A stretch of DNA of 44,553 nt from a virus. The position numbers and the translations under genes are program-made. The notes below the pieces were generated by a model. The model had not been told where the DNA came from. It worked only from the letters and a program-made list of their open reading frames with translations, and searched no databases. Positions 6,655 to 26,770 of the stretch are shown here, piece after piece. The stretch lies in IMG/VR virus record IMGVR_UViG_3300037474_000099. The stretch is one strand, 5' to 3'. Every line of letters begins with the position of its first letter. Position 1 is the stretch's first letter.

Positions 6655-6659
6655 TTACT

Positions 6660-7064: not shown

Positions 7065-7285
7065 TGAGAACTTTCCTCATCGTTGTTTACATTTTCTATC
7101 ATATCAACTATAAAATTAAGTCCATTTATATAACCTATAGCTTGACAATACTCTCTTTCAAGCGCAGGACTGACAACTAAAGCTCCGTCAGTAATTTCGT
7201 CTTTGGATTTATTTATCTCTTCTTTAATATCTTTTAAAATTCTTTGAGTTGTTTCAAGATATTTCCATAATACTTCATCAGACAT
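7061..7285 (-). CDS. hypothetical protein (74 aa)
   Basis: ORF track. Overlaps both neighbours. Confidence 0.5.
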   Translation of the reverse strand: MSDEVLWKYLETTQRILKDIKEEINKSKDEITDGALVVSPALEREYCQAIGYINGLNFIVDMIENVNNDEESSQ

Positions 7286-9302
7286 TGTTATTTCCTGAAT
7301 TATTGTCTTTATGTACTTTTATTCTATCTGTAGTAGCTCGAAAAGCCTCAATTTGAGCTAACGATTGTTTAACACTAGAGTCAATTTGACTTGATTTAAC
7401 ATCTGAAGCTGTTTTTAATAATTTACCCTGAGATTCAGTTTCTTTTCTATCTAATTCTCTTTCTTTTAATTGTAATTTTAATTTATTAGTAATTTCTTTT
7501 TCGGCTTTTAACTGAGCATTTAATTCATCCATTTGAATTTGATGATCTAATGCTTTACTATCAAGTTGTACTTTTAACATTTTTGGATCTGGTTGTTGAG
7601 ATTGTTTGGGTATTAAGAATGACTGAGGATCCGGTAATTGTAAATCAGTCATGATACTTAAAATCAATGCTTCAATGTTTAAAGATGAAGGAGCATTTTG
7701 TAATAATTGATATTTTGCTTGAATCATTGCATATTTATGAGCTTCAGAACTTTGAGTAGGATCTGCAACCGGAACAATATCTAAACTTTCTTCATCAAAA
7801 TCTTCTTTAAAGACAGCTAAATTTGTATCTTGAAATTTAGCATAAGTTACTTCATCTGCATGAATTGCATGAATATGAAACCATAATTTAAATTCTTTTT
7901 TAAGAGAAATATATAATTTTTGAACAATAGGTTTAAAGGCTCGTGTTCCTTGTTCTACCATAGCTAACATACTGGTAGCAGGAACGTTTTGCATTTCAGC
8001 ATCTCCTACTAATACATCAGTTATAAATCCATTTTCTTTACCTGAGGCGATTAACAGATTTAATAATCCAAGCAACACTTGAGATGGTTCTTTAAACGGT
8101 AAAGGAATAATATGTTTATTAGGATCAATATTAGGATTTATATCTAATACTTGAAATTGGCCCATTTTAAATTGTAAATTTCTTTCTTTAGTTTTAAAAG
8201 CTTTAGTTACAAAACCACCTTGTTGGTTTGCCAACGTTCCAGAATCTAATAATTGTCTAACCACCGAAGTAATAGCTTTATTTTGATGTAACAGTAAATA
8301 ATTTAAACCTATAGAATAAAATTTACCTTGAGGATCGTCCATACAATGGAAATCTACAATATCAATTCTGGGTTTTATATAACGAATTTCACCATCTTCA
8401 GGATTAACGTCTATATCAGCATATTCATAAGCCGGAACAATACATGCAGTTTTTACAGAGGTTTTATGGACATATACTTTATATGGTTCAGCATATCCAT
8501 CTTCGTCTAAGTCTAAATAACATAATTGACATAAAAATTCATGAACTGGCATCAATTCTCTTGAATCGTTTTTTTGACCGTCATTAGTTCCAGATTCTAA
8601 ATTTTCTAAATTCAAATCGAGAAAATAACCTGATCGTTGATATGACACCATGTCATTTTTAGTTAAATAATGACGAATAGTTATTCTAGGAGCTTTTTCT
8701 AAACAACTTATATTATGATTTATAATAACATCTTCAGGAGCTATTAAATCTGAACAGTTCTTCTTAGTGATAGGATCATAATACACTTGTCTAAAAGCTG
8801 TTCCCCATGAAGCTACGATATGACATAGTTTATGAGTATCTTTTAACCATGTATCAGATTCAATTAATTTTTCGTAATTTAAAAATGAACTTACTCGACT
8901 AGCTTTTTCTTTCTTTTTATATAATCCAGGAATTGGTTGTCCTGTTTGTGGATCAACAATGGGTTCGTCTTTTCCTAAAATAGTACAATCGCCTACTTTA
9001 TCATTTCTTGTTATATGTTGGACTAATCTAGATGCTAATTGAATTGTAGCGGGCGCTAATAATGGATATATAACTTTTGCAGAATCGACAAACGGAAAAT
9101 CTCGTCTTTCGTTAGGATTCTCGCAATGTTTAATTATTTTCATCGCTTCTAAATTTGTATTTAGCCAATCTTCTCTAGAATCTTGATCAATATTATAACC
9201 TAAAATTACGTCATCCGCTATTTTATGAAGCTGATCATCATCTAATAACTCTGCTATATTTGGTGTATTTAAAAATTTTAATAATTTATCAATAGCTGGC
9301 AT
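7278..9302 (-). CDS. Portal protein
   Basis: 674 aa, immediately downstream of TerL, with a C-terminal coiled-coil/basic tail. The call is by size and synteny. Confidence 0.75.
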   Translation of the reverse strand: MPAIDKLLKFLNTPNIAELLDDDQLHKIADDVILGYNIDQDSREDWLNTNLEAMKIIKHCENPNERRDFPFVDSAKVIYPLLAPATIQLASRLVQHITRNDKVGDCTILGKDEPIVDPQTGQPIPGLYKKKEKASRVSSFLNYEKLIESDTWLKDTHKLCHIVASWGTAFRQVYYDPITKKNCSDLIAPEDVIINHNISCLEKAPRITIRHYLTKNDMVSYQRSGYFLDLNLENLESGTNDGQKNDSRELMPVHEFLCQLCYLDLDEDGYAEPYKVYVHKTSVKTACIVPAYEYADIDVNPEDGEIRYIKPRIDIVDFHCMDDPQGKFYSIGLNYLLLHQNKAITSVVRQLLDSGTLANQQGGFVTKAFKTKERNLQFKMGQFQVLDINPNIDPNKHIIPLPFKEPSQVLLGLLNLLIASGKENGFITDVLVGDAEMQNVPATSMLAMVEQGTRAFKPIVQKLYISLKKEFKLWFHIHAIHADEVTYAKFQDTNLAVFKEDFDEESLDIVPVADPTQSSEAHKYAMIQAKYQLLQNAPSSLNIEALILSIMTDLQLPDPQSFLIPKQSQQPDPKMLKVQLDSKALDHQIQMDELNAQLKAEKEITNKLKLQLKERELDRKETESQGKLLKTASDVKSSQIDSSVKQSLAQIEAFRATTDRIKVHKDNNSGNNNV

Positions 9303-9304: not shown

Positions 9305-10825
9305 TTAATATCCGGTTAAGTTATCTCTATTTGATTTTACAACACGTTCAATGCGTCTTTCTTCAGATTCAAAATCATGTTTTGATTTTGCAACCCAATC
9401 AAACAATGACGTTATGTATTTTAAAGCATCCATTAAATGATCTGCTTGATTTTTGGCTGGTTTATTTGGATCTTTAGAATCATATCTATAAATTCTAAGT
9501 TCATTTAATGTATTTTGTAAAGTAGAAAAAATTTTTAATTTACCGGTCTCAAATAAACCTAAAACACGAGCTATACCGGCTTCTATTGCATTTTCTCCTT
9601 CGGTTAAATCTAATCCTAAAGATCTATAAATATCTATTAACATTCTTCCATCGGCATTTCGACCTCCGCCTGATGGATCGCATATTCCTGGTATCCACGA
9701 ACCTTTGGCTTTTATACTTTCAGCGTGAATTAGAGGTAATTCTTCTCCTCTATAATATTCTGAATAAATATATAGTTCGTCCGTCGAAGGATCTTTAGCT
9801 CCCCAAAGTACTGCAGTCTTATGCCAACCAAAATCCATTGCGAAACATCTTGGCCAATAGTCTGGAATCATAAAAGGTTTTACAGTAATTAAATCTTCAT
9901 CAACTGGATAAATTCTTCCTGATCCTAATGTAGGAATACCTTTTCTTCTCGCATCTCGTTCATGTTTTGGAATTTGATTAATCATAGTTTCCTGATCTTC
10001 TTTTGAAAGATGAGGAACTTGACTCCATTCTACCCGACAAATATATTGATCGGGGTTTTCTATGGGACTACCCGTGGAGGGAAATTGTCCATTAGGTAAA
10101 AATTTTAAAACTACTTCACTTAACCCTTTTAAAGGAGTAAATGCTAACATAGCGATTCCAGGTTCTTTAGATTTACCTATACCCATTAATCGCATCAAAC
10201 ATTCTGTATAGATATCTTCTCTGGGTTCTTCATCAAACAGAATTACATCTACTTTTGCTGCTTGAAACTGTTCTCGTTGCATTTCGTTAGTTTTAACAAT
10301 TAGAGAAACAGTATGTCCTGACATATGTTTAATAATAGCTGAACCGATTGCTCCCGGTGTACCTGGCATTGCATAATAATCGACAATACCGCAACCATTA
10401 TTCTTTTCAGCTAATGGAAGAAGGCCTGTTCCTATTTCTTCTCCAGCTTCTCCAAATAATAAGCGTTGAGCAGAATCTCTAAATAATGCTCCAGATTCTC
10501 CAATAATCCAAACTGTAGTAGGTTTTTTAAATTTCTTTCCTTCCCACCAATCTGGATACATTCCGGTTAAATGAAAACATAGTTCAACTAAAGTTGTAAA
10601 ACTTTTACCCGAACGATTGCCGCCCATATAAACTCTGAATCTATGATCTTTTCCTTTTTTCATAAATTCCATAGCCGGTCCATATAAATCTCTTCTTAAT
10701 GGACCCTTATCCGGAAATACTAATTTTAATTTATTATACTTATTATATTCAGATAAAGCTTGAAGTGATTCAGCTATTTCTGCAAGTTCTAGATCAGTTT
10801 TATTATTCAGATTGGTCAGATTCAT
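9305..10825 (-). CDS. terL: Terminase large subunit
   Basis: Walker A YMGGNRSGKSFT, Walker B VDVILFDEEP, and a C-terminal RNaseH-like nuclease region (FAMDFGW...CDPSGGG...DAL). 506 aa. Confidence 0.9.
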   Translation of the reverse strand: MNLTNLNNKTDLELAEIAESLQALSEYNKYNKLKLVFPDKGPLRRDLYGPAMEFMKKGKDHRFRVYMGGNRSGKSFTTLVELCFHLTGMYPDWWEGKKFKKPTTVWIIGESGALFRDSAQRLLFGEAGEEIGTGLLPLAEKNNGCGIVDYYAMPGTPGAIGSAIIKHMSGHTVSLIVKTNEMQREQFQAAKVDVILFDEEPREDIYTECLMRLMGIGKSKEPGIAMLAFTPLKGLSEVVLKFLPNGQFPSTGSPIENPDQYICRVEWSQVPHLSKEDQETMINQIPKHERDARRKGIPTLGSGRIYPVDEDLITVKPFMIPDYWPRCFAMDFGWHKTAVLWGAKDPSTDELYIYSEYYRGEELPLIHAESIKAKGSWIPGICDPSGGGRNADGRMLIDIYRSLGLDLTEGENAIEAGIARVLGLFETGKLKIFSTLQNTLNELRIYRYDSKDPNKPAKNQADHLMDALKYITSLFDWVAKSKHDFESEERRIERVVKSNRDNLTGY

Positions 10826-11258
10826 CGGTAACCTGCGGCGTTACATCAATTATATCTAATTCTTGTAATTTATTTTTAATAAACTCCAATCGTTCATCTC
10901 TAGTTTGAGTATTTAAAACATTCATATTTTGTATATTAATATTCGTTTGTGAATCGGAATTTTTATTCCATCCAAACTTCCTATTCATAAACGCTATCCA
11001 ATAATTAAATGCTTTATTGTCCTGGTTGGACATTAACTCCATTCCTTTCTGTTCCCACCATACTTCACAAAGAGCTAGTCCTTTTTCATGGGCTTCTTTA
11101 AGTTCTGGTTTTTCTTTAAGCCAAGTATAAAATGTTTCTTTGCTTATATTCCATCTAGCATATATCCAACTATCTTTGGCTCCATTAGACATCATATCTA
11201 ACATTTCATTGGGCATTTCTTCACGATAAACAGTGGGACGTGCCATATTATTTTCCAT
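10803..11258 (-). CDS. terS: Terminase small subunit (GP3_package-like HTH)
   Basis: ISKETFYTWLKEKPELKEAHEKG helix-turn-helix pattern. Directly upstream of TerL and overlapping it. Confidence 0.7.
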   Translation of the reverse strand: MENNMARPTVYREEMPNEMLDMMSNGAKDSWIYARWNISKETFYTWLKEKPELKEAHEKGLALCEVWWEQKGMELMSNQDNKAFNYWIAFMNRKFGWNKNSDSQTNINIQNMNVLNTQTRDERLEFIKNKLQELDIIDVTPQVTDESDQSE

Positions 11259-12818: not shown

Positions 12819-12847
12819 AGTATAATAGACAAATCAATATTTGTCAA
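12819..12847 (-). promoter_or_regulatory. Near-consensus sigma70 promoter with an embedded palindrome (candidate late promoter)
   Basis: On the minus strand: TTGACA (12847-12842), 17 nt, TATACT (12824-12819). The spacer contains the inverted repeat GACAAAT-attg-ATTTGTC, which overlaps the -35. Confidence 0.6.
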
Positions 12848-14673: not shown

Positions 14674-14943
14674 CTAACACTCAGGATCGTCATTATTACT
14701 AGACATTCTTTCACTATCATTGTCCTTCTTACGATCTATGAGTCTATGAGACATGCCCTGACTAAGCTCAATATCCCTAGTTCTATCACGAGCAATATAC
14801 TTATGAACTACCTTACTAACTTCTTCCATTAAATGGTATAACTCATTCTCACTAATGTACTTAACATGTTCATGACTACTACGTCTGTAGTAATCTTCTT
14901 TTCCTTTAAAGGTAAGTTCTATAAGTAATCCGTCATATCTCAT
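14674..14943 (-). CDS. 89-aa highly charged orphan protein
   Basis: ORF track. Isolated, with about 350 nt of non-coding DNA on each side. Confidence 0.5.
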   Translation of the reverse strand: MRYDGLLIELTFKGKEDYYRRSSHEHVKYISENELYHLMEEVSKVVHKYIARDRTRDIELSQGMSHRLIDRKKDNDSERMSSNNDDPEC

Positions 14944-15172
14944 TTTATATCTCTTTGATTATTATAATTATATAAGTGTATACCTTAATTATCAGGTGTA
15001 GATTGATATATAAACTCTAGTAGTTATAAGAACTTATATACACCGCTCTCACGAGGCGTTGATAGATAGTTAATTAGACTAGCTAATCATACTAACAAGT
15101 AATATGCTTTATTTGCTTCAGGGACACATAAGCCCTATATCTGTTTATTTCCTTATTAGTTGGCACTTACTA

Positions 15173-15201
15173 TTGACATCTTCCAATTGTTGTGACATAC
15201 T
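15173..15201 (+). promoter_or_regulatory. Early promoter P1
   Basis: tATTGACA: TTGACA (15173-15178), 17 nt, CATACT (15196-15201). The first plus-strand ORF is ~110 nt downstream. Confidence 0.55.
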
Positions 15202-15311
15202 TATCACATGACCTGTTTATTATCCTTAATGTCCTTCCTCTAGATAAACGAAGGCAAGGTATACATAATAAGTATAGCATATAATTAAAATTTGTCAAGA
15301 AGAGAGTGAAT

Positions 15312-15461
15312 ATGAATGGTATACTATTAGCGATAGTAGCATTAATATATGTTTTAGTAGCGATAAATATGCTATTATCTAATCAAATAGGATTAGGTTG
15401 TACATTTATTTGCTATGCGTTATCTAATGTATTTTTATATATAAGTTCTTTAAATATATGA
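15312..15461 (+). CDS. 49-aa two-TM peptide (MNGILLAIVALIYVLVAINMLLSNQIGLGCTFICYALSNVFLYISSLNI)
   Basis: My own translation. AGAGAG RBS-like sequence. Confidence 0.45.
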   Translation: MNGILLAIVALIYVLVAINMLLSNQIGLGCTFICYALSNVFLYISSLNI

Positions 15462-15468
15462 GGTTAAT

Positions 15469-15627
15469 ATGAATAAATTTAAAGCAATATATGACAATAT
15501 GTTAAGTTTCTTACTAGGGTTATTAATGGGATTATTGTTAGCCTTACTGTTAATTTTAAATGATACGTATAATCAAATAGATACGAATATTGATAACTAT
15601 ATGAATTATAATAATAAATATTTTTAA
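15469..15627 (+). CDS. 52-aa single-TM peptide (MNKFKAIYDNMLSFLLGLLMGLLLALLLILND...)
   Basis: My own translation. AGGT RBS. Confidence 0.45.
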   Translation: MNKFKAIYDNMLSFLLGLLMGLLLALLLILNDTYNQIDTNIDNYMNYNNKYF

Positions 15628-15634
15628 AAAAATA

Positions 15635-15662
15635 TTGACACCTTATATAAATTTGATATACT
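15635..15662 (+). promoter_or_regulatory. Early promoter P2
   Basis: tATTGACA: TTGACA (15635-15640), 16 nt, TATACT (15657-15662). Confidence 0.6.
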
Positions 15663-15696
15663 AAAATTGTAAGATAAATAGATATAAGGAGGGTTT

Positions 15697-15831
15697 ATGA
15701 ATACCGAATTATATACAGGAAGAATGGGAGCAGTAGACAAATTAAGAGATAATTTTAAAAAACAATTAGAAAAATTACAAAAAGAGTTAAAAAAACTAGG
15801 TAAAAAAATTGATAATATGAATAAAAATTAA
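15697..15831 (+). CDS. 44-aa basic coiled-coil peptide
   Basis: My own translation: MNTELYTGRMGAVDKLRDNFKKQLEKLQKELKKLGKKIDNMNKN. Strong AAGGAGGG RBS. Confidence 0.55.
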   Translation: MNTELYTGRMGAVDKLRDNFKKQLEKLQKELKKLGKKIDNMNKN

Positions 15832-15858
15832 TATTAATAAATGTACAAGGAGACTGCA

Positions 15859-15993
15859 ATGAAAACAACTATTTTAACTGTTATTGTTTATTTCGTAATA
15901 TCTTTAGTATTGCTTTCACATTCTGTATCTGTAATTGCTAATAGTACAGAATCTCTTAAAAATTGGAATGAATCTGGTAAAACATTAGATTAG
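15859..15993 (+). CDS. 44-aa N-terminally hydrophobic (signal or TM) peptide
   Basis: My own translation: MKTTILTVIVYFVISLVLLSHSVSVIANSTESLKNWNESGKTLD. AAGGAG RBS. Confidence 0.55.
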   Translation: MKTTILTVIVYFVISLVLLSHSVSVIANSTESLKNWNESGKTLD

Positions 15994-16003
15994 AGGTATA
16001 TAT

Positions 16004-16174
16004 ATGAAAACTTTTGAAAGGTTATTTGATGAATTTGACAATAAGATTAATGAATTTAAAAAATTAGTCAATTTTATAGAAAATGAAAATAAACGTTTAA
16101 AATCAGAAATTGAGCAAAAAGAAAAATTATTAAAATCTCAAGGTATTAAAATTACTTATGACTTAATAAAATAA
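16004..16174 (+). CDS. 56-aa coiled-coil peptide
   Basis: My own translation: MKTFERLFDEFDNKINEFKKLVNFIENENKRLKSEIEQKEKLLKSQGIKITYDLIK. GAGG RBS. Confidence 0.5.
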   Translation: MKTFERLFDEFDNKINEFKKLVNFIENENKRLKSEIEQKEKLLKSQGIKITYDLIK

Positions 16175-16189
16175 TAGGAGAATATATTA

Positions 16190-16735
16190 ATGAGAAAACT
16201 TAAAGATATTAGAAGTGACCTAGAGTTACATTATATGCAAGAATCCAGAACTGTGTTTTTTCATGGAGAAGTAGGACAATTTAAATTAGAAGATGCTTTG
16301 AGAAATTTAGATTATCTGGCTAATATAAGTAAGAAACCTATTATTTTAAGAATTTGCTCACCAGGAGGATCTGTAGATTATGGACTAGTGTTATATGATT
16401 ATATTAAAATGTCCAAAGTCCCTATTCATACGCTATGTTCAGGAATGGCAGCTTCAATGGCGGCTATATTATTAGGAAGTGGCAAAAAAGGAAAGCGTAT
16501 GGCTACTAAAAGTAGTCGTATTATGATACACCAACCATCATCAGGTTATATAGGTAAAGCGAGTGATATTGAAATTCATGCAAACGAGACTAAAAGGATT
16601 AGGAACCTTTTAAATACTATAATATCTAAAGATACAGGCCAGCCTTTAAAGAAGGTTGAAAAAGATACCGAATTAGATTTATGGATGACAGCTGAAAATG
16701 CTTTACAATATGGTATTATCGATAAAATTGTATAG
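16190..16735 (+). CDS. clpP: ATP-dependent Clp protease proteolytic subunit ClpP
   Basis: ICSPGGSV, catalytic Ser in GMAASMAA, His in IMIHQPS, Asp in EKDTELDLWMTAENALQYGIIDKIV. Full-length at 181 aa. AGGAG RBS. Confidence 0.9.
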   Translation: MRKLKDIRSDLELHYMQESRTVFFHGEVGQFKLEDALRNLDYLANISKKPIILRICSPGGSVDYGLVLYDYIKMSKVPIHTLCSGMAASMAAILLGSGKKGKRMATKSSRIMIHQPSSGYIGKASDIEIHANETKRIRNLLNTIISKDTGQPLKKVEKDTELDLWMTAENALQYGIIDKIV

Positions 16736-16742
16736 AGGCTAT

Positions 16743-17009
16743 ATGAATAATATATTAAATTTAAATCTATCTAAAGAAACACAAGATAAACTATTTGAAA
16801 TAGGATTAAACTTATTAAGTAAAAACAAATTATTAGGTATAGACTTATTTTATCAATATGAATCTTTTCCTAAATTATCTTTTAAAAAATTAATAATAGC
16901 TGCTACTATATTGTATATACTAAAAAAGGAATTGTCATATTTTCAATCATTTAGATATAAATGTAAGGTATTGATTAATAAAGTTAAAAATATTTTAAAA
17001 AAGTATTGA
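16743..17009 (+). CDS. hypothetical protein (88 aa from MNNILNL; the track start at 16698 lies inside clpP)
   Basis: GAGG RBS before the ATG at 16743. C-terminal hydrophobic segment. Confidence 0.5.
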   Translation: MNNILNLNLSKETQDKLFEIGLNLLSKNKLLGIDLFYQYESFPKLSFKKLIIAATILYILKKELSYFQSFRYKCKVLINKVKNILKKY

Positions 17010-17034
17010 CATATTAATATATAAGGAGGATAAT
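17006..17034 (+). promoter_or_regulatory. Early/middle promoter P3
   Basis: tATTGACA: TTGACA (17006-17011), 17 nt, GATAAT (17029-17034). Confidence 0.5.
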
Positions 17035-17057
17035 TAATATATAGAGGAGCAATTAAC

Positions 17058-17333
17058 ATGTACATAATAGATTTTTTTAGATATAAACTAGATACTAAAA
17101 CGTTTAAGGAAGATAAGGAAGGAATTGAAAGTTGTTATTTTGTAGATTATTATGAACATGTTGGATATGATGATTTAGATACAGTTTTTACGGAAATAAA
17201 AAAGTTTTTAAATAATAGTTATGGATATGTTACAGTTAATAGAGTAAAAATGAGAATAGATAATTTTAAAAAATTTAAAGAAGATATGTTAAAAAATAAA
17301 ATTATTTTATTAAATAATAAGGATAATATTTAA
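17058..17333 (+). CDS. hypothetical protein, tandem paralogue 1 (91 aa)
   Basis: Shares (I/L)(D/N)F(F/Y)RY.L(D/E)...F...(K/R).FL(N/D)N.YG(Y/F)V with the next ORF. Confidence 0.6.
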   Translation: MYIIDFFRYKLDTKTFKEDKEGIESCYFVDYYEHVGYDDLDTVFTEIKKFLNNSYGYVTVNRVKMRIDNFKKFKEDMLKNKIILLNNKDNI

Positions 17334-17353
17334 ACTGTGTTTATAGGTGACGT

Positions 17354-17650
17354 ATGATTATTTTAAATTTTTATAGATATGAATTAGAACAAAAACCATT
17401 TATCGGTAGATGTAAATCAAGTTTTAGATATATGTCTTATAAAAAAATTCTTGATCATATAATTACAGTAGAAACTTTATCTATCGCTAAAGATAAGATT
17501 AGAGATTTTTTAGATAATTATTACGGATTTGTTGACATAATTCCATTTAGAATGACAGTTAATAATAAAAAAGATTTTTTACAAAAGATGGATGATAGAG
17601 GAATTCATGCTGTTTATTTTACTAAAGTTAAGATGGGAGTTGATTTATGA
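17354..17650 (+). CDS. hypothetical protein, tandem paralogue 2 (98 aa)
   Basis: See 17058..17333. Confidence 0.6.
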   Translation: MIILNFYRYELEQKPFIGRCKSSFRYMSYKKILDHIITVETLSIAKDKIRDFLDNYYGFVDIIPFRMTVNNKKDFLQKMDDRGIHAVYFTKVKMGVDL

Positions 17651-17784
17651 GATGCAAAGCCTGTAATAATATATTGGAATCTAAAGATTTTTTAATAGAT
17701 AAATTAGGAGAATTATGTGTTAAGTGCGTAATATGGGTAGAAGACGATGTTAAATTAAAAAAAGATTGGGATGATGATAAATGA
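17647..17784 (+). CDS. 45-aa CxxC...CxxC zinc-ribbon-like peptide
   Basis: My own translation: MRCKACNNILESKDFLIDKLGELCVKCVIWVEDDVKLKKDWDDDK. ATGA overlaps at both ends. Confidence 0.5.
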   Translation: MRCKACNNILESKDFLIDKLGELCVKCVIWVEDDVKLKKDWDDDK

Positions 17785-18461
17785 GATATAAATGTGAAGA
17801 CTGCGGAGCTAACAGAGGATTAGCTAAATATTCTTCCGGAGATTGGTGTTTTTCTTGTAATAAATATTTTAAAAATAAAAAATTAATCGATTTATCATTT
17901 AATAAAAAACTAGATGAAGTTAGTTTATCAGATAATTTTCCTATTAATGCTATTAACTGGCTTGCTCAATATCAGATATTTAAAAATGATTTTAAAAACA
18001 ATAACTTAAAATGGTGCAATAATTATAAAAGAATATGTTTTTGTTTTGGTAAAGACTTGACAAATTATTATTTACGGAGTATAATACCTAATGAAAGAAA
18101 TAAATGGATTTTAAAATCCGAAAGAAAAGAATTTTATACTAAACAAGGAGTTAGTACTTCAAATTTAATTATTGTAGAGGATCCATTAAGCGCTATTAAA
18201 GTTTTTTCTTCTAAATTATGTGATGTAGTTGCTTTGGGAGGTACTAATTTTAATTCTTCTATATTAGTATCTATTTTTTTAAAATACGACAATTTGGTAC
18301 TTTGGTTAGATGGTGATTCTCCTGGTAGAATAGCTTCTAATAAATTTAGACAGAAATTTAAGCTTTTAAAACCTATTAAAATAATAAATACAAAAAAAGA
18401 CCCTAAAGACCATTCTTATGAACAAATTGAGGAAATATTAAATGAAAAAATATGTTCATAA
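17781..18461 (+). CDS. DNA primase (zinc ribbon + TOPRIM)
   Basis: CEDCGA..x14..CFSC zinc ribbon. TOPRIM residues IIVEDPLSAIKV and LWLDGDSPGR. Confidence 0.75.
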   Translation: MRYKCEDCGANRGLAKYSSGDWCFSCNKYFKNKKLIDLSFNKKLDEVSLSDNFPINAINWLAQYQIFKNDFKNNNLKWCNNYKRICFCFGKDLTNYYLRSIIPNERNKWILKSERKEFYTKQGVSTSNLIIVEDPLSAIKVFSSKLCDVVALGGTNFNSSILVSIFLKYDNLVLWLDGDSPGRIASNKFRQKFKLLKPIKIINTKKDPKDHSYEQIEEILNEKICS

Positions 18462-18497
18462 ATGTCCTTATATAAATGAAACGAATTTGGGACTAAT

Positions 18498-19694
18498 ATG
18501 ATTGAATTAACTTTACTTAAAGCTTTATCTAATAAAGAAAGTTTTAATAAATATAAAAATTTATTAAATCCTAAAACTCTATCTCAACATTCTTTAATGT
18601 TATTAAAAGACTATGAAGTATATTTTCACAAATATTCTCATGATAGGATAGATTGGTCTTTATTTCCTACTTATTTTTTTGAAATAAGGCATCCTTACAT
18701 GGATGAAAAATCTATATTAGAATATAAAGAAATTATAAGTAATATATCTACATTACATGTAAATGGAGAAATTAAAGATATTTATAAAGGATTTGAACAA
18801 CAGGAATTTTATTTAGAATTGCAAAGATTATTAGATAACAATATAGATGTCAAAGAATTAAAAATAAAATTAGAAGATTTTTCAAAAACAATTGAAGAAA
18901 AAACAGAACTAGAAGTAGAAATGGATTTAAAAGAATCTTTAAACTATACAAATCGATCAGAAGGATTAGTTTGGAGATGTGAAAAACTTCGAAATCATTT
19001 CCAGGGTGGATTAATTAAAGGTGATTTTGGAATAGTAGCGGGATATGTAGATACAGGTAAATCTAGTTTTATAGCTTCAGAAGTATCTTATATGGCTACT
19101 CAATTAAAAGATGAAGAATATATATTATGGTGTAGTAATGAAGGTGATTGGAAATCATTATTGCCCAGATTATATTGCGCGACGTTAAATTGTACAGATA
19201 AAGATTTAAGGCAATATTTAGATAAAGCTGAAGAAAAGTATTTAAATTTAATGAAAGGAAATAAAAACAGAGTAATTATTAAGGATATACAAGGATGGTC
19301 ATATGTAGAATTAGAAAATTTGATTAAATCAAATCCTCCTAAATTATTAGTCATAGATTTATTAGATAATGTATCTGGATTTAACAAAGAATCTGAATGG
19401 AGTCGGTATGGTAAACTGTATCAATGGGCACGAGAAATAGCTACACATTATTGTCCAGTATTAGGAGTATCGCAGTTAAATGGAGATGGAGAAAATAAAG
19501 AATATCCAAGTATGTCACGTTTAAGAGGTTCAAGAGTAGATAAACAAGGTGCCGCTACCTTTCAATTGCATATAGGATCTTTAGAAGGCAATAATGACAT
19601 TAGATATTTAAGTATGCCAAAAAATAAAATAAACAGTAATAAATCTTGGAGAGTTCAAGTAAAATTTGATGCTAATAGATCGAGATTTATATGA
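18498..19694 (+). CDS. Replicative DnaB/T7 gp4-type helicase
   Basis: Walker A GYVDTGKSSF, Walker B LLVIDLLDNV, and the SQLN motif. Confidence 0.8.
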   Translation: MIELTLLKALSNKESFNKYKNLLNPKTLSQHSLMLLKDYEVYFHKYSHDRIDWSLFPTYFFEIRHPYMDEKSILEYKEIISNISTLHVNGEIKDIYKGFEQQEFYLELQRLLDNNIDVKELKIKLEDFSKTIEEKTELEVEMDLKESLNYTNRSEGLVWRCEKLRNHFQGGLIKGDFGIVAGYVDTGKSSFIASEVSYMATQLKDEEYILWCSNEGDWKSLLPRLYCATLNCTDKDLRQYLDKAEEKYLNLMKGNKNRVIIKDIQGWSYVELENLIKSNPPKLLVIDLLDNVSGFNKESEWSRYGKLYQWAREIATHYCPVLGVSQLNGDGENKEYPSMSRLRGSRVDKQGAATFQLHIGSLEGNNDIRYLSMPKNKINSNKSWRVQVKFDANRSRFI

Positions 19695-19891
19695 TATATA
19701 AAGTACAAAGTAAAATGCAAAGTATATTTAACATTTATCATTTTGTTAGTCACAAAATTGAAGGAACTTATAAAAATAAAGCAGATGCTATAGGTCACCA
19801 ATACGTTTTATTTGCTGATCATTTAGCAAAATTAATATTGAAACAAGAAACTGAACTGAAGTTATTTGAAATAATAGAAGAGATTGAATAA
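19691..19891 (+). CDS. hypothetical protein (66 aa)
   Basis: ORF track. ATGA overlap with the helicase gene. Confidence 0.5.
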   Translation: MIYKVQSKMQSIFNIYHFVSHKIEGTYKNKADAIGHQYVLFADHLAKLILKQETELKLFEIIEEIE

Positions 19892-20333
19892 TGGGATCAT
19901 TATGTCTATAACACGTAAAAAAGCAGAGCAAATTGTAAATGAAAGTTTAGAATTGTGCAAACAATTGTTAAAATTAACAAAATATAAAATAACTGTTCAT
20001 ATATTGCATACTAAATCAGTATTCTTAAGAAAAAATGGTGCTAAACCTCAGGGAGAGATGGCAAGTTGTTATGGGTCAGAATATAGTAAATCAGCTGATA
20101 TTATAATACATTATGATAAACATCCTAATGATAGAGAAGTTCTTAGTTCTTTAATTCATGAATTATTACATTTAAAATTTGCTAAATTATCGGAATTAGT
20201 TACGTTGAAACAAAGAAAAGCTCATAATATAGAAGAGAATTTAGTAAGAGATTTTGAAGAATTGATAATGCAATTTTTAGACAATAGTCATAAACTTGTT
20301 AAACGGATTAAAAAATTGAGCAAAGAGAGGTAA
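19884..20333 (+). CDS. HExxH motif protein (putative zinc metallopeptidase; start may be 19902)
   Basis: The only recognisable feature is SLIHELLHLKF (HExxH). Confidence 0.35.
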   Translation: MNNGIIMSITRKKAEQIVNESLELCKQLLKLTKYKITVHILHTKSVFLRKNGAKPQGEMASCYGSEYSKSADIIIHYDKHPNDREVLSSLIHELLHLKFAKLSELVTLKQRKAHNIEENLVRDFEELIMQFLDNSHKLVKRIKKLSKER

Positions 20334-20336
20334 ATT

Positions 20337-20573
20337 ATGAAATTAAATGCAAAAGCTATATTACAAGCAGAATCGGTAAATGTAAATTTACAAACTGATG
20401 CTGTAGAACTTTTATTGGATGATGGACAAAGTTTAACATTAAGTTATAATGATTTGACAATAATGGAAGCTGTATTGCTAAAATTAAAATTTGCAGATCC
20501 AGTTATATCTCCTGGAAAGTCTACAGGAGATATATTTAAAGCTTTGAGTTTAATGGAACAGGAAACTAAATAA
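20337..20573 (+). CDS. hypothetical protein (78 aa)
   Basis: ORF track. Confidence 0.5.
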   Translation: MKLNAKAILQAESVNVNLQTDAVELLLDDGQSLTLSYNDLTIMEAVLLKLKFADPVISPGKSTGDIFKALSLMEQETK

Positions 20574-21250
20574 TGTATTTAGTAGTTGATTTAGAAACAA
20601 CTTGTAAAGAACGTTATAAAAGAAAAGGTAATCCTTTTTATAACAATATATTATGCTACGGTTTTAAGTATCAAAATAAGGAAGCTTTTGGCAAACCTTC
20701 AGACAATGTCCCTGAAGGATGGTTAAATGGAGTTACAGACCTTATAGGACATAATATAAAATATGATTTGTTATATCTATGGAGAAATAGAGAGCTTCAA
20801 GAGGCTTTTAAAAGGGGTTTAAATATATGGGATACGCAGTTAGCAGAGTATATATTATCAGGGCAACAGCATAAATATCCAGCATTGAGAGATATAGCAG
20901 TCAATAAATATGGTTGTAAAGAAAGAGTTAAGCATATTGAACAAGGTTTTAAAAATGGATTACTAGATACATCTGAAATACCAATGCCGTTGTTATTAGA
21001 AGATGTTACTAATGATGTCATTGATACCGAAGTAATAGCTTTAGAACAGTTAAGAAAATCTAAAGAGAATGGAATGTATAATTTAATTAAATCCCAAATG
21101 AATTCTTTACTAGCGACAACCGAAATGGAATATAATGGAATGTTTATTAATAAAAGTATATTAAAAAATAGAGAAACTGAAATAAAAAACCAGTTAGAAA
21201 TTTTATATAGTGAATTAAATCAAATAACAGGAAAATATTGGAATGATTGA
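20573..21250 (+). CDS. DNA polymerase A, 3'-5' exonuclease-domain ORF
   Basis: Exo I VVDLETT, Exo II LIGHNIKYDLLYL. Overlaps the polymerase ORF by 8 nt (ATGATTGA). Confidence 0.8.
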   Translation: MYLVVDLETTCKERYKRKGNPFYNNILCYGFKYQNKEAFGKPSDNVPEGWLNGVTDLIGHNIKYDLLYLWRNRELQEAFKRGLNIWDTQLAEYILSGQQHKYPALRDIAVNKYGCKERVKHIEQGFKNGLLDTSEIPMPLLLEDVTNDVIDTEVIALEQLRKSKENGMYNLIKSQMNSLLATTEMEYNGMFINKSILKNRETEIKNQLEILYSELNQITGKYWND

Positions 21251-22523
21251 TTTTAATCCTTCATCTACTAAACATTTATCTACTCTTCTTTTTGGAGGAG
21301 AAGTTAAATATGTAGAAAAAATCCCTAATGGAATATTTAAATCTGGAGAGAGAAAAGGAGAAATAAAATACAAAAATGAAGATAAAATTAAAAAATTTAA
21401 TGGGTTAGTTAAACCCTTAAAAGAATGGAAATCGGAAGCGGGTAATATAAGTACAGGAGATACAGTATTACAAATATTAGCTAAAAGACAAGATAAAGAC
21501 GCAGGAAAAATAGCTAAAATATTATTAGAAATAAGAAAATTAGAAAAAGAATTAAATACTTATTATAACGCTATTGGTGAATTGATATATGATTTTGATA
21601 GTACGGTAAAAGGCCAACTATGTCATTGTGGATACGATAAAGGATCCGAATTTGGAGGTGGTACATCTACTGGACGACTATCAAGCAGACATCCTAATCT
21701 ACAAAATTTTCCTAGAGCGGCTGATAGTCAAGTTAGAGAATTTTTTTCTAGTAGATATGGCGATAATGGAATTATTATAGAATGCGATTACAAGCAATTA
21801 GAAGTAGTAGTATTTGCTTTTTTAACCCAAGATGTTCAATTAATTGAAGATATAAATAATGGTATTGATATTCATAGAATATTAGCTAGCAGGTTATATA
21901 GAACCCCCGAAGCTTTAATTACTAATGAACAACGTCAACAGACTAAATTTAGTACATTTCATGTTATTTATGGAGGAGGATATAAATCCTTAGCTAAAAG
22001 AGAGAATATAGATGAAGAAATAGCAAAGAAATTTATTGATATTTTTTATGAAAGATATCCTCAAGCTAAATTATGGCAGGATAATTTAGTTAGACAAGTT
22101 AATAATACAAGAGATTTTGATAAAAAACTAGCTTATTTTCAATCAGTTACAGGTCGAATATATTATTTTCCTTTAATGGATCAGCCATATAAAAATGGAA
22201 ATAATGAAATATGGGTTTACCCTCCTAATATAAAAAACTATCCAGTTCAAGGACTTGCAACTGCGGATATAGTATTAATAATGCTAGGTAAATTATGGAG
22301 GCAAGCTATTGAAAACAGAGATAAATTTTTACTTATAAATACAGTTCACGATTCAGTAGTTATAGATTGTAAAAAAGAATTTTTGGATTTTACTTGCAAT
22401 TTAGTAAAAAATGAGTTAGAATTAGGATATGAGATTTTAAAAAATTTATTTAATATAGATTTTAACGTACCCTTGAAAATAGACATAAAGACAGGAAAAG
22501 ATTGGAGGAAATGCGGACTATGA
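21243..22523 (+). CDS. DNA polymerase A, polymerase-domain ORF
   Basis: Motif A CDYKQLEVVVFA, motif B RQQTKFSTFHVIYGGG, motif C NTVHDSVVID, and GRLSSRHPNLQNFPR. Confidence 0.85.
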   Translation: MIDFNPSSTKHLSTLLFGGEVKYVEKIPNGIFKSGERKGEIKYKNEDKIKKFNGLVKPLKEWKSEAGNISTGDTVLQILAKRQDKDAGKIAKILLEIRKLEKELNTYYNAIGELIYDFDSTVKGQLCHCGYDKGSEFGGGTSTGRLSSRHPNLQNFPRAADSQVREFFSSRYGDNGIIIECDYKQLEVVVFAFLTQDVQLIEDINNGIDIHRILASRLYRTPEALITNEQRQQTKFSTFHVIYGGGYKSLAKRENIDEEIAKKFIDIFYERYPQAKLWQDNLVRQVNNTRDFDKKLAYFQSVTGRIYYFPLMDQPYKNGNNEIWVYPPNIKNYPVQGLATADIVLIMLGKLWRQAIENRDKFLLINTVHDSVVIDCKKEFLDFTCNLVKNELELGYEILKNLFNIDFNVPLKIDIKTGKDWRKCGL

Positions 22524-22759
22524 AAAAAGATTTTAAAAAATCTAAAGAAGCTAAATTTATTAAAAATACTTTAAAAAAATCTAAGTTAAAAAAATCTAAC
22601 GTTAATAAATTTAAAAATGAACGTAAAAAAATATTAAATAAGTTGAAAGTAGATCTAGACAGGGTTAATCAAGGTGAAAAGTTTTTACTAAAATTAGCAG
22701 CTGTATTTTTACTATTTACTGTAGTAAGTATGTTTTTAATTTCGTTAATGCATTTTTAA
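22502..22759 (+). CDS. Lys-rich protein with a C-terminal TM anchor (85 aa)
   Basis: ORF track. The true start may be the internal MKKDFKK. Confidence 0.45.
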   Translation: MEEMRTMKKDFKKSKEAKFIKNTLKKSKLKKSNVNKFKNERKKILNKLKVDLDRVNQGEKFLLKLAAVFLLFTVVSMFLISLMHF

Positions 22760-22770
22760 TCGAGGCTTAT

Positions 22771-22905
22771 ATGAGAATCATGTTCAAAACCGAACGATAT
22801 TGCCATAAATGCCATAAAATTCGCAATGTTAACGAATTTAATAAAATTACTAAAAATTTTAGAATTTCAAGTGAATGTAAACAACATAGAGGTAAACAAA
22901 AATGA
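22771..22905 (+). CDS. 44-aa CxxC basic peptide
   Basis: My own translation: MRIMFKTERYCHKCHKIRNVNEFNKITKNFRISSECKQHRGKQK. GAGG RBS. Its stop overlaps the SSB ATG (ATGA). Confidence 0.5.
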   Translation: MRIMFKTERYCHKCHKIRNVNEFNKITKNFRISSECKQHRGKQK

Positions 22906-23477
22906 CACAATTTACAGGAGTGGTAAAAAAAGTAGTTTCTAAAGAAATTGATATTGCCAACAAGCCATTTATAAAACACGAAATCTCTATAGATTCAGAT
23001 GGCGAGACGAAAACAGTGTTAAAATTTACAAAACCAGAAACGACATTTGCTTTGGAAAAAGGGACTAAAGTTCAAGTAACAGGAGAAGAACAGGAAGATA
23101 AATATGGTAATACCACAATTAAAGTAAACAGTAAGCCTGAATCATTTGTATTGCTGGATCAAAACAACAAACCTAAAGATTCAGGAAAAACATGGACAAA
23201 TACTACTTCTACTACTGGTACCAAAGATGTGGCATTACGACCGACTTTCAATACATTTAATGGAGATGGTGCAAAACGTGGTAATGCATTAACTAATGCT
23301 GTAACTATGTTAATTCATAATAAAAACGGAAGTCAAATTACTATAAAAGATGCAGAAAAATTATTAGAATTAGCTAGAATGGTATTTAAAGTATCCACTG
23401 ATCTAGAAAATCCAGATACTACTTCTTCCACTAGTACAACAAAGGATTCTAATAATGAAGTTTCTCCATTCGATTAA
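22902..23477 (+). CDS. Single-stranded DNA-binding protein (putative)
   Basis: OB-like N-terminal half, a low-complexity T/S linker and an acidic/aromatic C-terminal tip (NNEVSPFD). Sits in the replication module. Confidence 0.5.
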   Translation: MTQFTGVVKKVVSKEIDIANKPFIKHEISIDSDGETKTVLKFTKPETTFALEKGTKVQVTGEEQEDKYGNTTIKVNSKPESFVLLDQNNKPKDSGKTWTNTTSTTGTKDVALRPTFNTFNGDGAKRGNALTNAVTMLIHNKNGSQITIKDAEKLLELARMVFKVSTDLENPDTTSSTSTTKDSNNEVSPFD

Positions 23478-24639
23478 CGGTATTTTAGGCAAGACTTTAG
23501 GTATAAATGAATTATTAGAGATTGGAGTTGTAGATCCAGTCTCTATAGTTCAAGATTTAGATAAGTATATTATTGGCCAAGACGCAGCTAAAAAATCTAT
23601 AGCGTTGATGCTTTTAAATAGATCCTTGTTAATGCTAAAAAAATTTGGAGTATTGTCCCCAGATTTAAAATTAACTAAGAATAATGTACTTATGTTAGGT
23701 CCAACAGGATCGGGTAAAACTGCTTTAATTAAAGCAGTAGCTGAGATATCTGATATACCTATTTATATATATGACATTACATCTACTACTGGAGCTGGAT
23801 ATTATGGATCTGATTTATTGGATATGTTAAATGAACATATAAATTATCAGTATGATTATTATAGTGAATTGTATCAAGCTCAAACGTTATCTGAAGAAGA
23901 TTTTTACAATTTTTCTTTTGACGTATTTTGTAAAATTGTAGAAAATAGTATTATATATATAGATGAAATAGATAAAATAAAAATTACTAGGGACAATTCT
24001 AAAAAAGATGGTTGGGGATCAATGCTCCAAGTTGAATTATTAAAAATGATAGAAGGACATAATGTAAATCTATTAAATGATAAAACTAGACAAACAGAGA
24101 AAACCTTAAATAAAGCTCAAATATCAAATCTTAATACTGAAAATATTTTCTTTATAGCTGGAGGAGCTTTTAGCGGTTTAGATGATATTATTAAACATAG
24201 ATTAAAAATAAATAATACTGTTGGATTTTTAACAGATTATGAACAAAAGCTTAAAATAGAAAAAAATGCCTTAGATTTTTTTAAAACTGAGGATTTAATT
24301 GAATATGGTTTCATGCCCGAGTTTATCGGTAGATTTCCAATAAAGACCGTACTCCAGTCTCATACTGTTGATACACTGAAAAAGATAATGACAAAAGCCC
24401 ATGGCTCCGTATATTTAGAATATATAGATTTATTTAAGGTTTTTGGCGTTAAATTAAAATTTAGTGATGAGGCGTTAACAGAAATAGCCAATGCAGCTCT
24501 TAAGGTAAATTTAGGAGCTAGAGCTTTAAAAAGTATTTTTAATGAGATTTTAGAAGATAAAGTTTTTAACATATTTCATGACACGCCGGGAACTATGATA
24601 ATTAGTAAAACTGAGGTAAAAAAACGATTAAAATTATAG
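23455..24639 (+). CDS. clpX: ClpX-like AAA+ unfoldase lacking the N-terminal zinc-binding domain
   Basis: LDKYIIGQDAAKK, Walker A GPTGSGKT, pore-1 loop GAGYYGSD, Walker B IIYIDEIDKI, IGF-loop equivalent TVGF, EDLIEYGFMPEFIGRFP, sensor-2 GARALKSI. Confidence 0.85.
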   Translation: MKFLHSINGILGKTLGINELLEIGVVDPVSIVQDLDKYIIGQDAAKKSIALMLLNRSLLMLKKFGVLSPDLKLTKNNVLMLGPTGSGKTALIKAVAEISDIPIYIYDITSTTGAGYYGSDLLDMLNEHINYQYDYYSELYQAQTLSEEDFYNFSFDVFCKIVENSIIYIDEIDKIKITRDNSKKDGWGSMLQVELLKMIEGHNVNLLNDKTRQTEKTLNKAQISNLNTENIFFIAGGAFSGLDDIIKHRLKINNTVGFLTDYEQKLKIEKNALDFFKTEDLIEYGFMPEFIGRFPIKTVLQSHTVDTLKKIMTKAHGSVYLEYIDLFKVFGVKLKFSDEALTEIANAALKVNLGARALKSIFNEILEDKVFNIFHDTPGTMIISKTEVKKRLKL

Positions 24640-24645
24640 GAGTAA

Positions 24646-25449
24646 ATGATGTTATTTGATTGGGCTATAATTGATATGGATCCGTTAGTATATAGATGTG
24701 GTTTTTCTATAGAAAAAATAGATAGACAAACTGGTATTTTGACAGTTGAGCCCGCACACCATGCTTTTTATAATATAAATAGTATGATGAAAAAAATTCT
24801 AAAGCATACTAAAAATAATCAATATAAAGGTTGGTTAACTTCAAATGATAAAAGTAACTTTAGATTTGATATATTTCCAGCGTATAAATCTAATAGAAAA
24901 GATGCTCGTAAACCTATATTTTATAATGAAATTAGAGATTTTCTTGTTAATAAATGGAAAGCTGAGGTAGTATTTGGTCAAGAAGCTGACGATCAGTGTA
25001 CAATAGATCATTGCGAATTAAATAAATTAGGATTTGACCCTGAAAATTTAAATTCAATAGTATGTTCTTTTGATAAAGATTTTAATAATGTTCCGGGATG
25101 GCATTATAACTTTGTTAAAGATGAAGTATATTATATTGATGAAATTCAAGCATATAGAAATTTTTATCTTCAGATATTAACTGGAGATACTAGTGATGGT
25201 ATACCCCGAATTAAAAAAGGATGGCTAAAGAAAAAAACCGAAGAATTATTATCAAAAGCCTTGACAATAGAAGAAATGGAAGATATAATACATAAAGAAA
25301 TAGAAAAACATTCAACAGAAGATTTGAATTCATTAACAATTTTTAAAGAGAGAGGTCAGCTTGTATGGCTACGTCGAGAAGCAGAGGAATTCTGGATCCC
25401 GAAAAAATGTCGAGAAAAGCAAAATTTAACTGGTTTAGAGATCAGTTAG
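24646..25449 (+). CDS. 5'-3' exonuclease / flap endonuclease
   Basis: PAYKSNRK, GQEADDQ, SFDKDF, ILTGDTSDGIPRIKKG (H3TH). Confidence 0.8.
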   Translation: MMLFDWAIIDMDPLVYRCGFSIEKIDRQTGILTVEPAHHAFYNINSMMKKILKHTKNNQYKGWLTSNDKSNFRFDIFPAYKSNRKDARKPIFYNEIRDFLVNKWKAEVVFGQEADDQCTIDHCELNKLGFDPENLNSIVCSFDKDFNNVPGWHYNFVKDEVYYIDEIQAYRNFYLQILTGDTSDGIPRIKKGWLKKKTEELLSKALTIEEMEDIIHKEIEKHSTEDLNSLTIFKERGQLVWLRREAEEFWIPKKCREKQNLTGLEIS

Positions 25450-26525: not shown

Positions 26526-26770
26526 TGATGAAAATAAAAGGTGTCGAATACCCAGTCAGTATATTAAAGGTTACATTACATGATGAAACTTTAACTAAAT
26601 TGGATTGGATTAAGAATAATTTAAAATTAAAAAATGATGCTGAAAGCTTGTCTATGATTATAAATTCAGTATATTCTCAATTAAAACAAATGGTGCAGTA
26701 TTACGAAAGTAATAATGTAGAAGATATGCAGGATAAGGAAGAAAAACCTAGTGAAGATAGCAAATCCTAA
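26525..26770 (+). CDS. hypothetical protein (81 aa; possibly ribbon-helix-helix-like)
   Basis: ORF track. The VTLHDETLTKLDWIKNNL strand-helix pattern is only suggestive. Confidence 0.4.
   Translation: MMKIKGVEYPVSILKVTLHDETLTKLDWIKNNLKLKNDAESLSMIINSVYSQLKQMVQYYESNNVEDMQDKEEKPSEDSKS

Follow-up and report, generated by a model that had tools for sequence, protein, structure and literature searches.

What does a phage of about 44.5 kb do with a ClpP protease that it encodes outside its head module? The question is raised by the gene at 16190-16735 on the plus strand of the IMG/VR virus record IMGVR_UViG_3300037474_000099, which was analysed over its whole length of 44,553 nucleotides (nt; hereafter, the window). 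The product was identified as a cellular-type ClpP, predicted to be catalytically intact, and a ClpX-like AAA+ ATPase is encoded further along the same strand. The preferred explanation, to which a probability of roughly 45% is assigned, is an early or middle phage Clp protease in which the ClpX-like motor would feed ClpP through a remodelled interface that insulates it from the host.

Identity and catalytic state of the phage ClpP

The gene and its functional sites are the following (aa, amino acids):
16190-16735 (+): ClpP-family serine protease gene, 181 aa, ATG start
16176-16180 (+): Shine-Dalgarno AGGAG, read from the sequence, 9 nt upstream of the ClpP ATG
16454-16456 (+): codon of catalytic Ser89 (Escherichia coli Ser97), from alignments
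16529-16531 (+): codon of catalytic His114 (His122), in an MIHQP motif, from alignments
16676-16678 (+): codon of catalytic Asp163 (Asp171), from alignments; the preceding codon is Leu162, at the Arg170 position

The N-terminus cannot be longer, because an in-frame TAG is found at 16175-16177, five codons upstream of the ATG. The Pfam profile CLP_protease (PF00574) matched residues 14-181 of 181 with 188.8 bits (gathering score 20.2), the top sequence matches in the PDB were cellular ClpPs (E value 9e-40), and the HQP and GKKGKR motifs match those of cellular ClpP. The AlphaFold2 (AF2) model of the monomer, made with 31 sequences, had a predicted local distance difference test score (pLDDT) of 90.6 and a long handle helix (residues 124-149), and its template modelling (TM) scores to solved ClpPs were 0.88-0.92. 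The Ser89/His114/Asp163 triad was invariant in 21/21 members of the clade described below, and the ratio of nonsynonymous to synonymous substitution rates (dN/dS), calculated against a 76%-identical homologue, was ~0.13.

By membership tests, the protein is a ClpP-family protease in fold, profile and triad and is not an equivalog of the housekeeping ClpP: it scored below the NCBIfam cut-offs for TIGR00493 (162.8 vs 308.6) and for the best subfamily model, NF009205 (189.8 vs 228). Judged from its sequence, 16190-16735 codes for a cellular-type ClpP that retains an intact catalytic site and evolves under purifying selection. An intact ClpP at this place had been proposed in a first-pass annotation of the window, and in this respect the annotation holds.

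Cellular-type or prohead protease

Homologues were searched for among 5.8 billion proteins. About 20 clusters at 55-76% identity were obtained, mostly on phage-like contigs of 20-48 kb, and were followed by cellular ClpPs at ~50% local identity. The best matches in GenBank phages (35-46%) came from Lak megaphages and Rak2/GAP32-like jumbo phages and are non-structural ClpPs; the annotated head-maturation proteases of GenBank phages were 24-33% identical to the phage ClpP. A scan of viral contigs with ClpP gave homologues at 43-48% identity only and no member of the window clade.

A neighbour-joining tree was built from a trimmed alignment of 37 sequences with 100 bootstraps, and six bona fide prohead S14 proteases encoded between portal and capsid genes served as the prohead set. 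The window ClpP clade was monophyletic in 96/100 bootstraps. The prohead set was monophyletic in 99/100 and formed a long separate branch, with the window clade outside it and grouped with cellular and non-structural phage ClpPs; the placement against bacterial and prohead S14 proteases that the first-pass annotation had called for thus came out on the cellular side. The same alignment gave 42-46% identity of the phage ClpP to cellular ClpPs and 22-27% to the six prohead proteases. By homology, the window ClpP belongs to a phage-specific clade of 21 sequence clusters.

The similarity to cellular ClpP would be expected of a recently captured host clpP carried as a passenger or decaying gene. 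This origin is highly improbable given the conservation of the gene: the clade holds 21 clusters at the identities given above with an intact triad and conserved substitutions of its own, dN/dS is low, and the gene is kept across phages in which the gene order is rearranged.

The head module, with which a prohead protease would be associated, is encoded on the opposite strand:
3731-9302 (-): head module, consisting of the portal gene, then open reading frames (ORFs) of 74, 134, 302, 161 and 205 aa, then the capsid protein gene
7278-9302 (-): SU10-type portal
3731-4636 (-): Mu gpT-like major capsid protein, 301 aa, without a delta domain

The absence of a protease from this module, claimed earlier, was borne out, as Pfam, PHROGs and NCBIfam profiles revealed none in the stretch that runs from the portal to the capsid gene. 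This gap is one reason to consider that ClpP might be a prohead protease encoded outside the head module and acting in trans on the capsid protein or on the 302-aa protein, which is acidic, helical and scaffold-like by composition alone. The presence of such a separate scaffold-like protein fits this idea, and so do the best PHROG matches of ClpP, which are labelled 'head maturation protease' (PHROG lumps all ClpP-like proteins). The prohead proteases of siphophages (Staphylococcus phiSa2wa, Streptococcus P7133, Paenibacillus Harrison, and Gifsy-2) also share with the phage ClpP the S14 fold, the lack of an N-terminal hairpin, and a polar apical face.

They differ from it, however, in being encoded between portal and capsid genes, in having C-terminal extensions of 40-100+ aa, in lacking the two-residue GKxGKR insertion, and in having Glu at the Asp171 position. 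The phage ClpP has Asp in its triad and carries neither a C-terminal extension nor a targeting segment, ending 0-1 residue past the core in 21/21 clade members. It scored 78.3 with the NCBIfam model of ClpP-related head-maturation proteases (NF045542), below the cut-off of 120. Its gene is 6.9 kb from the portal gene, and in the related contigs examined (P0002, L011, L012, L029-L034, and the window's own copies) ClpP invariably belonged to the replication block and was found neither in the head module nor beside portal or capsid genes. The 301-aa capsid protein without a delta domain speaks against processing too, and many scaffold-using phages need no protease. Together with the tree position and the low identity to the prohead set, these features make a role in trans in head maturation improbable. 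On phylogeny, identity, architecture and a non-structural location throughout eight related contigs, the phage ClpP is not a prohead-type S14 protease, which agrees with the earlier claim that it is not of the capsid-maturation type.

The 'ClpP-like protease' of cluster E mycobacteriophages (for example, Command613 gp103) resembles the phage ClpP in its setting: it is encoded in the non-structural arm of a 75-kb phage and adjoins SSB (single-stranded DNA-binding protein) and endonuclease VII genes. It differs from the phage ClpP, with which it shares only 31% identity, by an insertion and by a long coiled-coil-like extension at the N-terminus; in the tree it is placed between the cellular ClpPs and the prohead set. 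No ClpX-like gene was found in the 6.4-kb stretch of Command613 that was examined.

The ClpX-like ATPase

The second component and its motifs are encoded as follows:
23455-24639 (+): ClpX-like AAA+ unfoldase gene, 394 aa, starting 6720 nt after the ClpP stop
23698-23721 (+): Walker A, GPTGSGKT
23797-23808 (+): pore-1 loop, GYYG in place of GYVG
23950-23976 (+): Walker B, IIYIDEIDK
24220-24228 (+): VGF tripeptide, residues 256-258, aligned by HMMER with the ClpP-docking IGF loop of E. coli and Listeria monocytogenes ClpX
24316-24333 (+): Arg finger, PEFIGR
24511-24531 (+): sensor-2, LGARALK
22902-23477 (+): 191-aa ORF, the last 23 nt of which overlap the start of the ClpX-like gene; SSB-like by composition, with an acidic tail (...EVSPFD)

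The top PDB matches of the 394-aa protein were L. monocytogenes ClpX (2e-51) and E. coli ClpX (2e-50), with HslU much lower, which confirms the earlier statement that a ClpX-like ATPase is encoded 6.7 kb downstream of ClpP. Pfam AAA_2 and ClpB_D2-small were matched. The scores were below the NCBIfam cut-offs for NF003745 (262.8 vs 359) and TIGR00382 (233.1 vs 370.75); HslU scored 153.3. The likeness to bacterial ClpX covers Walker A and B, the Arg finger, sensor-2, the aromatic pore-1 loop, and an IGF-type loop (VGF in the phage). All motor motifs are present, and the protein looks functional as a motor. The [IV]GF tripeptide is kept in all phage relatives of the protein, including mini-ClpX proteins of 300-358 aa.

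Unlike bacterial ClpX, the phage protein has no N-terminal C4 zinc-binding domain (no PF06689 match and no Cys cluster were found, and the alignment starts at about E. coli residue 60), no RKH loop (the position reads RQT), and a divergent pore-2 loop, and it carries an insertion of 25-30 aa after the pore-1 loop. The loss of the zinc domain and of the RKH loop, the divergent pore-2 loop and the insertion are shared by about a dozen phage relatives at 40-64% identity.

An acidic C-terminal tail is typical of SSBs. The label of the 191-aa ORF is inferred, as the product matched no Pfam, PHROG or NCBIfam family. The window, the P0002 contig and L029-L031 share the gene order PolA, SSB-like or AAA protein, ClpX, flap endonuclease; in the last three contigs the slot of the 191-aa ORF holds an AAA protein of 313-325 aa.

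Co-occurrence of ClpP and ClpX-like genes

An AAA_2 ATPase bearing the IGF-type loop accompanied window-clade ClpP in 5/5 informative contigs, namely the window, the P0002 contig, L011, L033, and L034 (L032 is truncated). ClpX and ClpP were also found together in L029-L031, L001, L006, and L007. Three of the ATPases are of the mini-ClpX type (300-358 aa):
L011, 2995-3927: mini-ClpX ATPase
L033, 5582-6484: mini-ClpX ATPase
L034, 4140-5216: mini-ClpX ATPase

The Walker motifs, a GWSG aromatic pore loop and [IV]GF are kept in the mini-ClpX proteins, which have neither the zinc domain nor the insertion and are ~26% identical to the ClpX-like protein of the window (measured for L011).

Two further ORFs of these contigs are recorded here. 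A 101-aa ORF with a weak Pfam match to SspB, a ClpX adaptor, is located at 8008-8313 of L033, just upstream of the primase-helicase and window-clade ClpP genes; no homologue of it was found in the window. L011 encodes, at 15848-16540, a second, membrane-anchored ClpP/NfeD-like protein of 230 aa in which Ser and His align with the ClpP triad, and which has no counterpart in the window.

Docking face of the ClpP clade

Bacterial ClpXP (E. coli, L. monocytogenes; MEROPS S14) and the phage ClpP are alike in fold, Ser-His-Asp triad, HQP motif and handle region, with ~44-50% identity of the phage ClpP to cellular ClpPs. The surfaces that contact the motor and the opposite ring differ. The 21 window-clade ClpPs were compared with 98 cellular-type ClpPs from the same search (E. 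coli numbering):
Tyr62: cellular-type 98/98, clade 0/21 (Arg/Gln/Lys/Glu); window Arg54, codon 16349-16351 (+)
Leu114: cellular-type 98/98, clade 0/21 (Thr/Ser); window Thr106, codon 16505-16507 (+)
Leu/Ile48: cellular-type 97/98, clade 0/21 (Glu/Asp, other polar); window Asp41
Phe/Tyr82: cellular-type 96/98, clade 0/21 (mostly Ser)
Glu14: cellular-type 95/98, clade 0/21
Arg15: cellular-type 96/98, clade 0/21
Asp18: cellular-type 97/98, clade 6/21
Arg22: cellular-type 90/98, clade 0/21
Leu24: cellular-type 97/98, clade 0/21
Arg192: cellular-type 73/98, clade none
Arg170 (ring-ring sensor): cellular-type 95/98; clade Leu in 17/21, window Leu162

In addition, Met92 is replaced by Ser84 in the window ClpP. 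Helix A has only ~10 residues in front of it, which form a disordered coil without a hairpin in the AF2 model. This short N-terminus accounts for the absence of the hairpin residues Glu14 to Leu24, and the N-terminal axial beta-hairpin collar (Glu8, Glu14, Arg15, Asp18, Arg22) is therefore lacking. Arg192 is absent because the phage ClpP ends at Val181, in the Leu189 column. The hydrophobic IGF/LGF docking cleft (Tyr60, Tyr62, Phe82, Ile90, Met92, Phe112, Leu114, Leu48) is likewise not found in its canonical form.

Other surface residues are conserved specifically within the clade: Lys115 (20/21), Tyr/Phe79 (20/21; Thr in 96/98 cellular-type ClpPs), Thr60 (16/21), and a basic N-terminal motif, MKKLxK. 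With these conserved residues, the docking face looks remodelled rather than decayed.

Partners or separate proteins

According to the preferred explanation, the phage would produce its own Clp protease in the pre-assembly phase. A hexamer of the ClpX-like protein would pick and unfold host or phage proteins and feed them into the phage ClpP barrel. The phage ClpP would have swapped the axial hairpin, Tyr62, Leu114, Leu48 and Arg192 for Lys115, Tyr/Phe79, Thr60 and the N-terminal MKKLxK; since the canonical docking determinants are replaced by a conserved set of the clade's own, the interface is probably remodelled. With such an interface, host ClpX/ClpA/ClpC would be kept away from the phage protease, and host ClpP might likewise be kept away from the phage motor. 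The position of the ClpX-like gene, with the DNA polymerase and SSB-like genes on one side and the flap endonuclease gene on the other, is conserved and suggests substrates in replication or host takeover. Defence proteins, regulators or amino-acid supply, named in the first-pass annotation, are a matter of conjecture.

Several observations weigh against this explanation. By cryo-EM and mutagenesis, the ClpX-ClpP interface has been assigned to the elements in question: IGF side chains pack into hydrophobic ClpP clefts, and the N-terminal hairpins form the axial collar (PMC7112951); in the phage clade, Tyr62, Leu114, Leu/Ile48, Glu14, Arg15 and Arg192 are lost, and the cleft positions 82, 90 and 112 are variable and polar. 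In E. coli ClpP, R192K alone abolishes ClpX binding (PMC7112951). In L012, the 10 kb to each side of a window-clade ClpP gene contain no ClpX-like gene. The ClpPs of L029-L031, L001 and L006 keep Tyr62, Leu-Pro114-115 and the YSRLL helix; ClpX of L029-L031 is thus paired with a ClpP that has the canonical pocket, and loss of the pocket is therefore not required for a phage ClpXP. Of the cognate ClpXP machine proposed earlier, what stands is the co-inherited ClpX-like protein with its IGF-type loop, whereas the canonical docking determinants on the ClpP side, including the hairpin, are gone; the proposal is partly supported, and a ClpXP of canonical type is doubtful.

The same losses fit the view that the two proteins are not direct partners, which is judged somewhat unlikely. 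ClpP could then be a gate-less, stand-alone enzyme that degrades unfolded or nascent polypeptides, like N-terminally truncated or acyldepsipeptide (ADEP)-activated ClpP; the ~10 disordered residues before helix A in the AF2 model are in line with this version. Alternatively, ClpP could form a specificity-changing second ring on host ClpP, like Pseudomonas aeruginosa ClpP2 or mycobacterial ClpP1. The IGF-bearing ATPase would then dock to host ClpP or act by itself as a remodeller in replication. Precedent is given by ClpP paralogues that cannot dock to ClpX and need a mixed tetradecamer for activity: P. aeruginosa ClpP2 and actinobacterial ClpP1 keep the triad but have altered apical clefts and a divergent N-terminus, and the ATPase binds the partner ring only (PMC12451819). 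The position of the ClpX-like gene in the replication module is conserved and that of ClpP is not, and the ClpP of L012 without a nearby ClpX points the same way.

Against separate functions stands the 5/5 co-occurrence with an IGF-bearing ATPase, even where the ATPase is only 26% identical to that of the window, and the clade-specific surface residues and MKKLxK suggest that an interface is maintained. The change of Arg170 to Leu gives stacking on a host ring no obvious favour. Unlike in the ClpP-paralogue systems, no second ClpP gene is present in the window, and a mixed ring would need host ClpP; a C-terminal extension blocks the clefts of P. aeruginosa ClpP2, but the phage ClpP is entirely without such a tail.

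A more far-reaching form of the partnership is also somewhat unlikely. Here, ClpP would work only with its co-inherited zinc-domain-less, sometimes ~300-aa 'mini' ClpX, as an orthogonal, private machine deployed before assembly to reshape the proteome of the infected cell, a machine which host ClpX/ClpA/ClpC would be unable to use and to which host regulators would be blind.

Upstream region and gene position

The region between the divergent control region (14943-15306) and ClpP, and the promoter-like motifs of the window, are as follows:
15306-16174 (+): five mini-ORFs (51, 52, 44, 50, and 56 aa)
15173-15201 (+): sigma-70-like promoter candidate, TTGACA-17-CATACT, TG-extended, 10/12 (consensus match only)
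15635-15662 (+): sigma-70-like promoter candidate, TTGACA-16-TATACT, TG-extended, extended -10, 11/12 (consensus match); also a TTGACA-N15-18-TAYAMT site
12819-12847 (-): TTGACA-N15-18-TAYAMT site
15271-15298 (-): TTGACA-N15-18-TAYAMT site
18057-18085 (+): TTGACA-N15-18-TAYAMT site
25261-25289 (+): TTGACA-N15-18-TAYAMT site
31292-31318 (+): TTGACA-N15-18-TAYAMT site

ClpP had been described as lying behind two early promoters and five mini-ORFs, on the strand opposite the head genes. The mini-ORFs (44-56 aa) and the strand are as described, and the mini-ORF genes were also called on the independent contigs L015 and L017. As to the promoters, two promoter-like sites were found, and the motif TTGACA-N15-18-TAYAMT occurs six times against 0.24 expected, with a divergent pair flanking the control region; promoters upstream of ClpP are plausible but not proven.

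ClpP is the first ORF of >60 aa past the divergent control region, and the packaging and head genes are on the other strand; by position, this fits its designation as the first sizeable early gene of the window. Among relatives, the first place is held only in the closest one. Within the replication block, ClpP may come first behind the control region, follow PolA or the primase-helicase, or stand last; its 'first early gene' position is thus not conserved.

Genome setting and other genes

The phage genome in the window is ~44.5 kb with a low GC content of 30.8%. The first and last 42 bp (1-42 and 44512-44553) are an identical direct repeat, which marks the window as a circularly closed or complete assembly. 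The stretch 15000-25000 had no nucleotide match in GenBank phages, among which no close relative is sequenced. No tRNA genes were found in the window. The remaining genes are arranged as follows:
10803-11258 (-): small terminase
9305-10825 (-): large terminase
44296-32098: tail genes, which wrap around to this position
~15.3 to 31.9 kb (+): non-structural genes, beginning with the five mini-ORFs, ClpP, primase, DnaB-like helicase, 3'-5' exonuclease-like protein, and PolA
(+), after PolA: 191-aa SSB-like ORF, ClpX-like ATPase, flap endonuclease, endonuclease VII, SbmA/BacA-like membrane protein
(+), final part: second exonuclease-like protein, MazZ-like deoxynucleoside triphosphate (dNTP) diphosphohydrolase, HtrA-like protease, glucosaminidase endolysin
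17058-17333 (+): 91-aa ORF, just downstream of ClpP
17354-17650 (+): 98-aa ORF, adjacent to the former
26751-27584 (+): SbmA/BacA-like transmembrane protein (PF05992, 1.4e-20)
29214-29789 (+): N-terminal domain of a MazZ-like dATP/dGTP diphosphohydrolase (PF18909, 1.2e-18)
30643-31395 (+): second protease, HtrA/DegP-like, trypsin fold, 250 aa (Pfam Trypsin_2, 6e-14; NCBIfam degP_htrA)
31401-31922 (+): glucosaminidase endolysin

In the head module, the 134-aa ORF that follows the portal gene (6660-7064, minus strand) had been labelled GroES-like. No Pfam, PHROG, NCBIfam or PDB-sequence match was obtained for this putative GroES-like product; BLASTP against E. coli GroES gave an E value of 0.55, and a single-sequence AF2 model had a pLDDT of 39.8. 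The PDB sequence search with the 205-aa head-module protein gave chance matches only.

The HtrA-like protease, which the first-pass annotation had overlooked, lacks a PDZ domain and carries a signal or membrane anchor at its N-terminus; its gene is directly upstream of the endolysin gene. It may have an envelope or lysis role. It was considered as the missing prohead protease and rejected on account of the signal or anchor and of its position next to the endolysin. Homologues are present in the relatives L012 and L033.

The two ORFs just downstream of ClpP start alike (MYIIDFFRYKLD... and MIILNFYRYELE...) and look like tandem paralogues. The SbmA/BacA-like protein is unusual cargo for a small phage and is kept in the relatives L011 and L032. 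The MazZ-like gene is kept in almost all related contigs. MazZ-like diphosphohydrolases go with modified-base (Z-genome) pathways; no PurZ-like gene was seen.

The host was approached through a terminase search of GTDB genomes, in which the only match, at 40% identity, was on a 49-kb contig binned with a Curvibacter metagenome-assembled genome; this contig is probably itself a phage contig. A Gram-positive, low-GC host is weakly suggested by strong AGGAG sites, by promoters with a TG-extended -10 and, in the relatives, by glucosaminidase and CHAP lysins.

Known phage Clp components and significance

Phage-encoded Clp components are, as a general idea, already known from jumbo and mega phages at annotation level. 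ClpP and/or ClpX are encoded outside the head module in Agrobacterium phage Atu_ph07, Rak2-like/GAP32 phages, Lak phages, and Sinorhizobium phage AP-J-162, and anti-host, host-directed or replication-linked roles have been suggested for these genes without experiment (PMC6102473, PMC7824862, PMC11242549). The literature search found no functional study of phage-encoded ClpP or ClpX. The jumbo and mega phages differ from the present one in genome size (350-550 kb vs 44.5 kb), and in the ClpPs of GAP32, phiKp_21 and Lak both Tyr62 and a canonical N-terminal segment are present; the window clade forms a lineage of its own.

What appears to be new, at the level of sequence, is a ClpP/ClpX-like pair in a 44.5-kb genome, together with a phage-only ClpP lineage whose docking face is systematically altered and which is co-inherited with a zinc-domain-less, sometimes miniaturised ClpX. 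The docking face of the clade differs from that of all 98 cellular-type ClpPs compared. In so compact a genome every gene is costly, and carrying the pair must therefore pay. The phage ClpP lacks the usual motor-binding surface, and whether or not it works with the ClpX-like motor has consequences either way. If the two are not partners, the phage ClpP would be gate-less by nature or would form a viral ring that takes over host ClpP. If they are partners, ClpX and ClpP would meet at an interface of a new type and the virus would have an insulated system of proteolysis, useful for the understanding of host takeover and as an orthogonal degradation module; and if the machine proves to be private to the phage, it would be a minimal ClpXP that occurs in nature and has a non-canonical interface.

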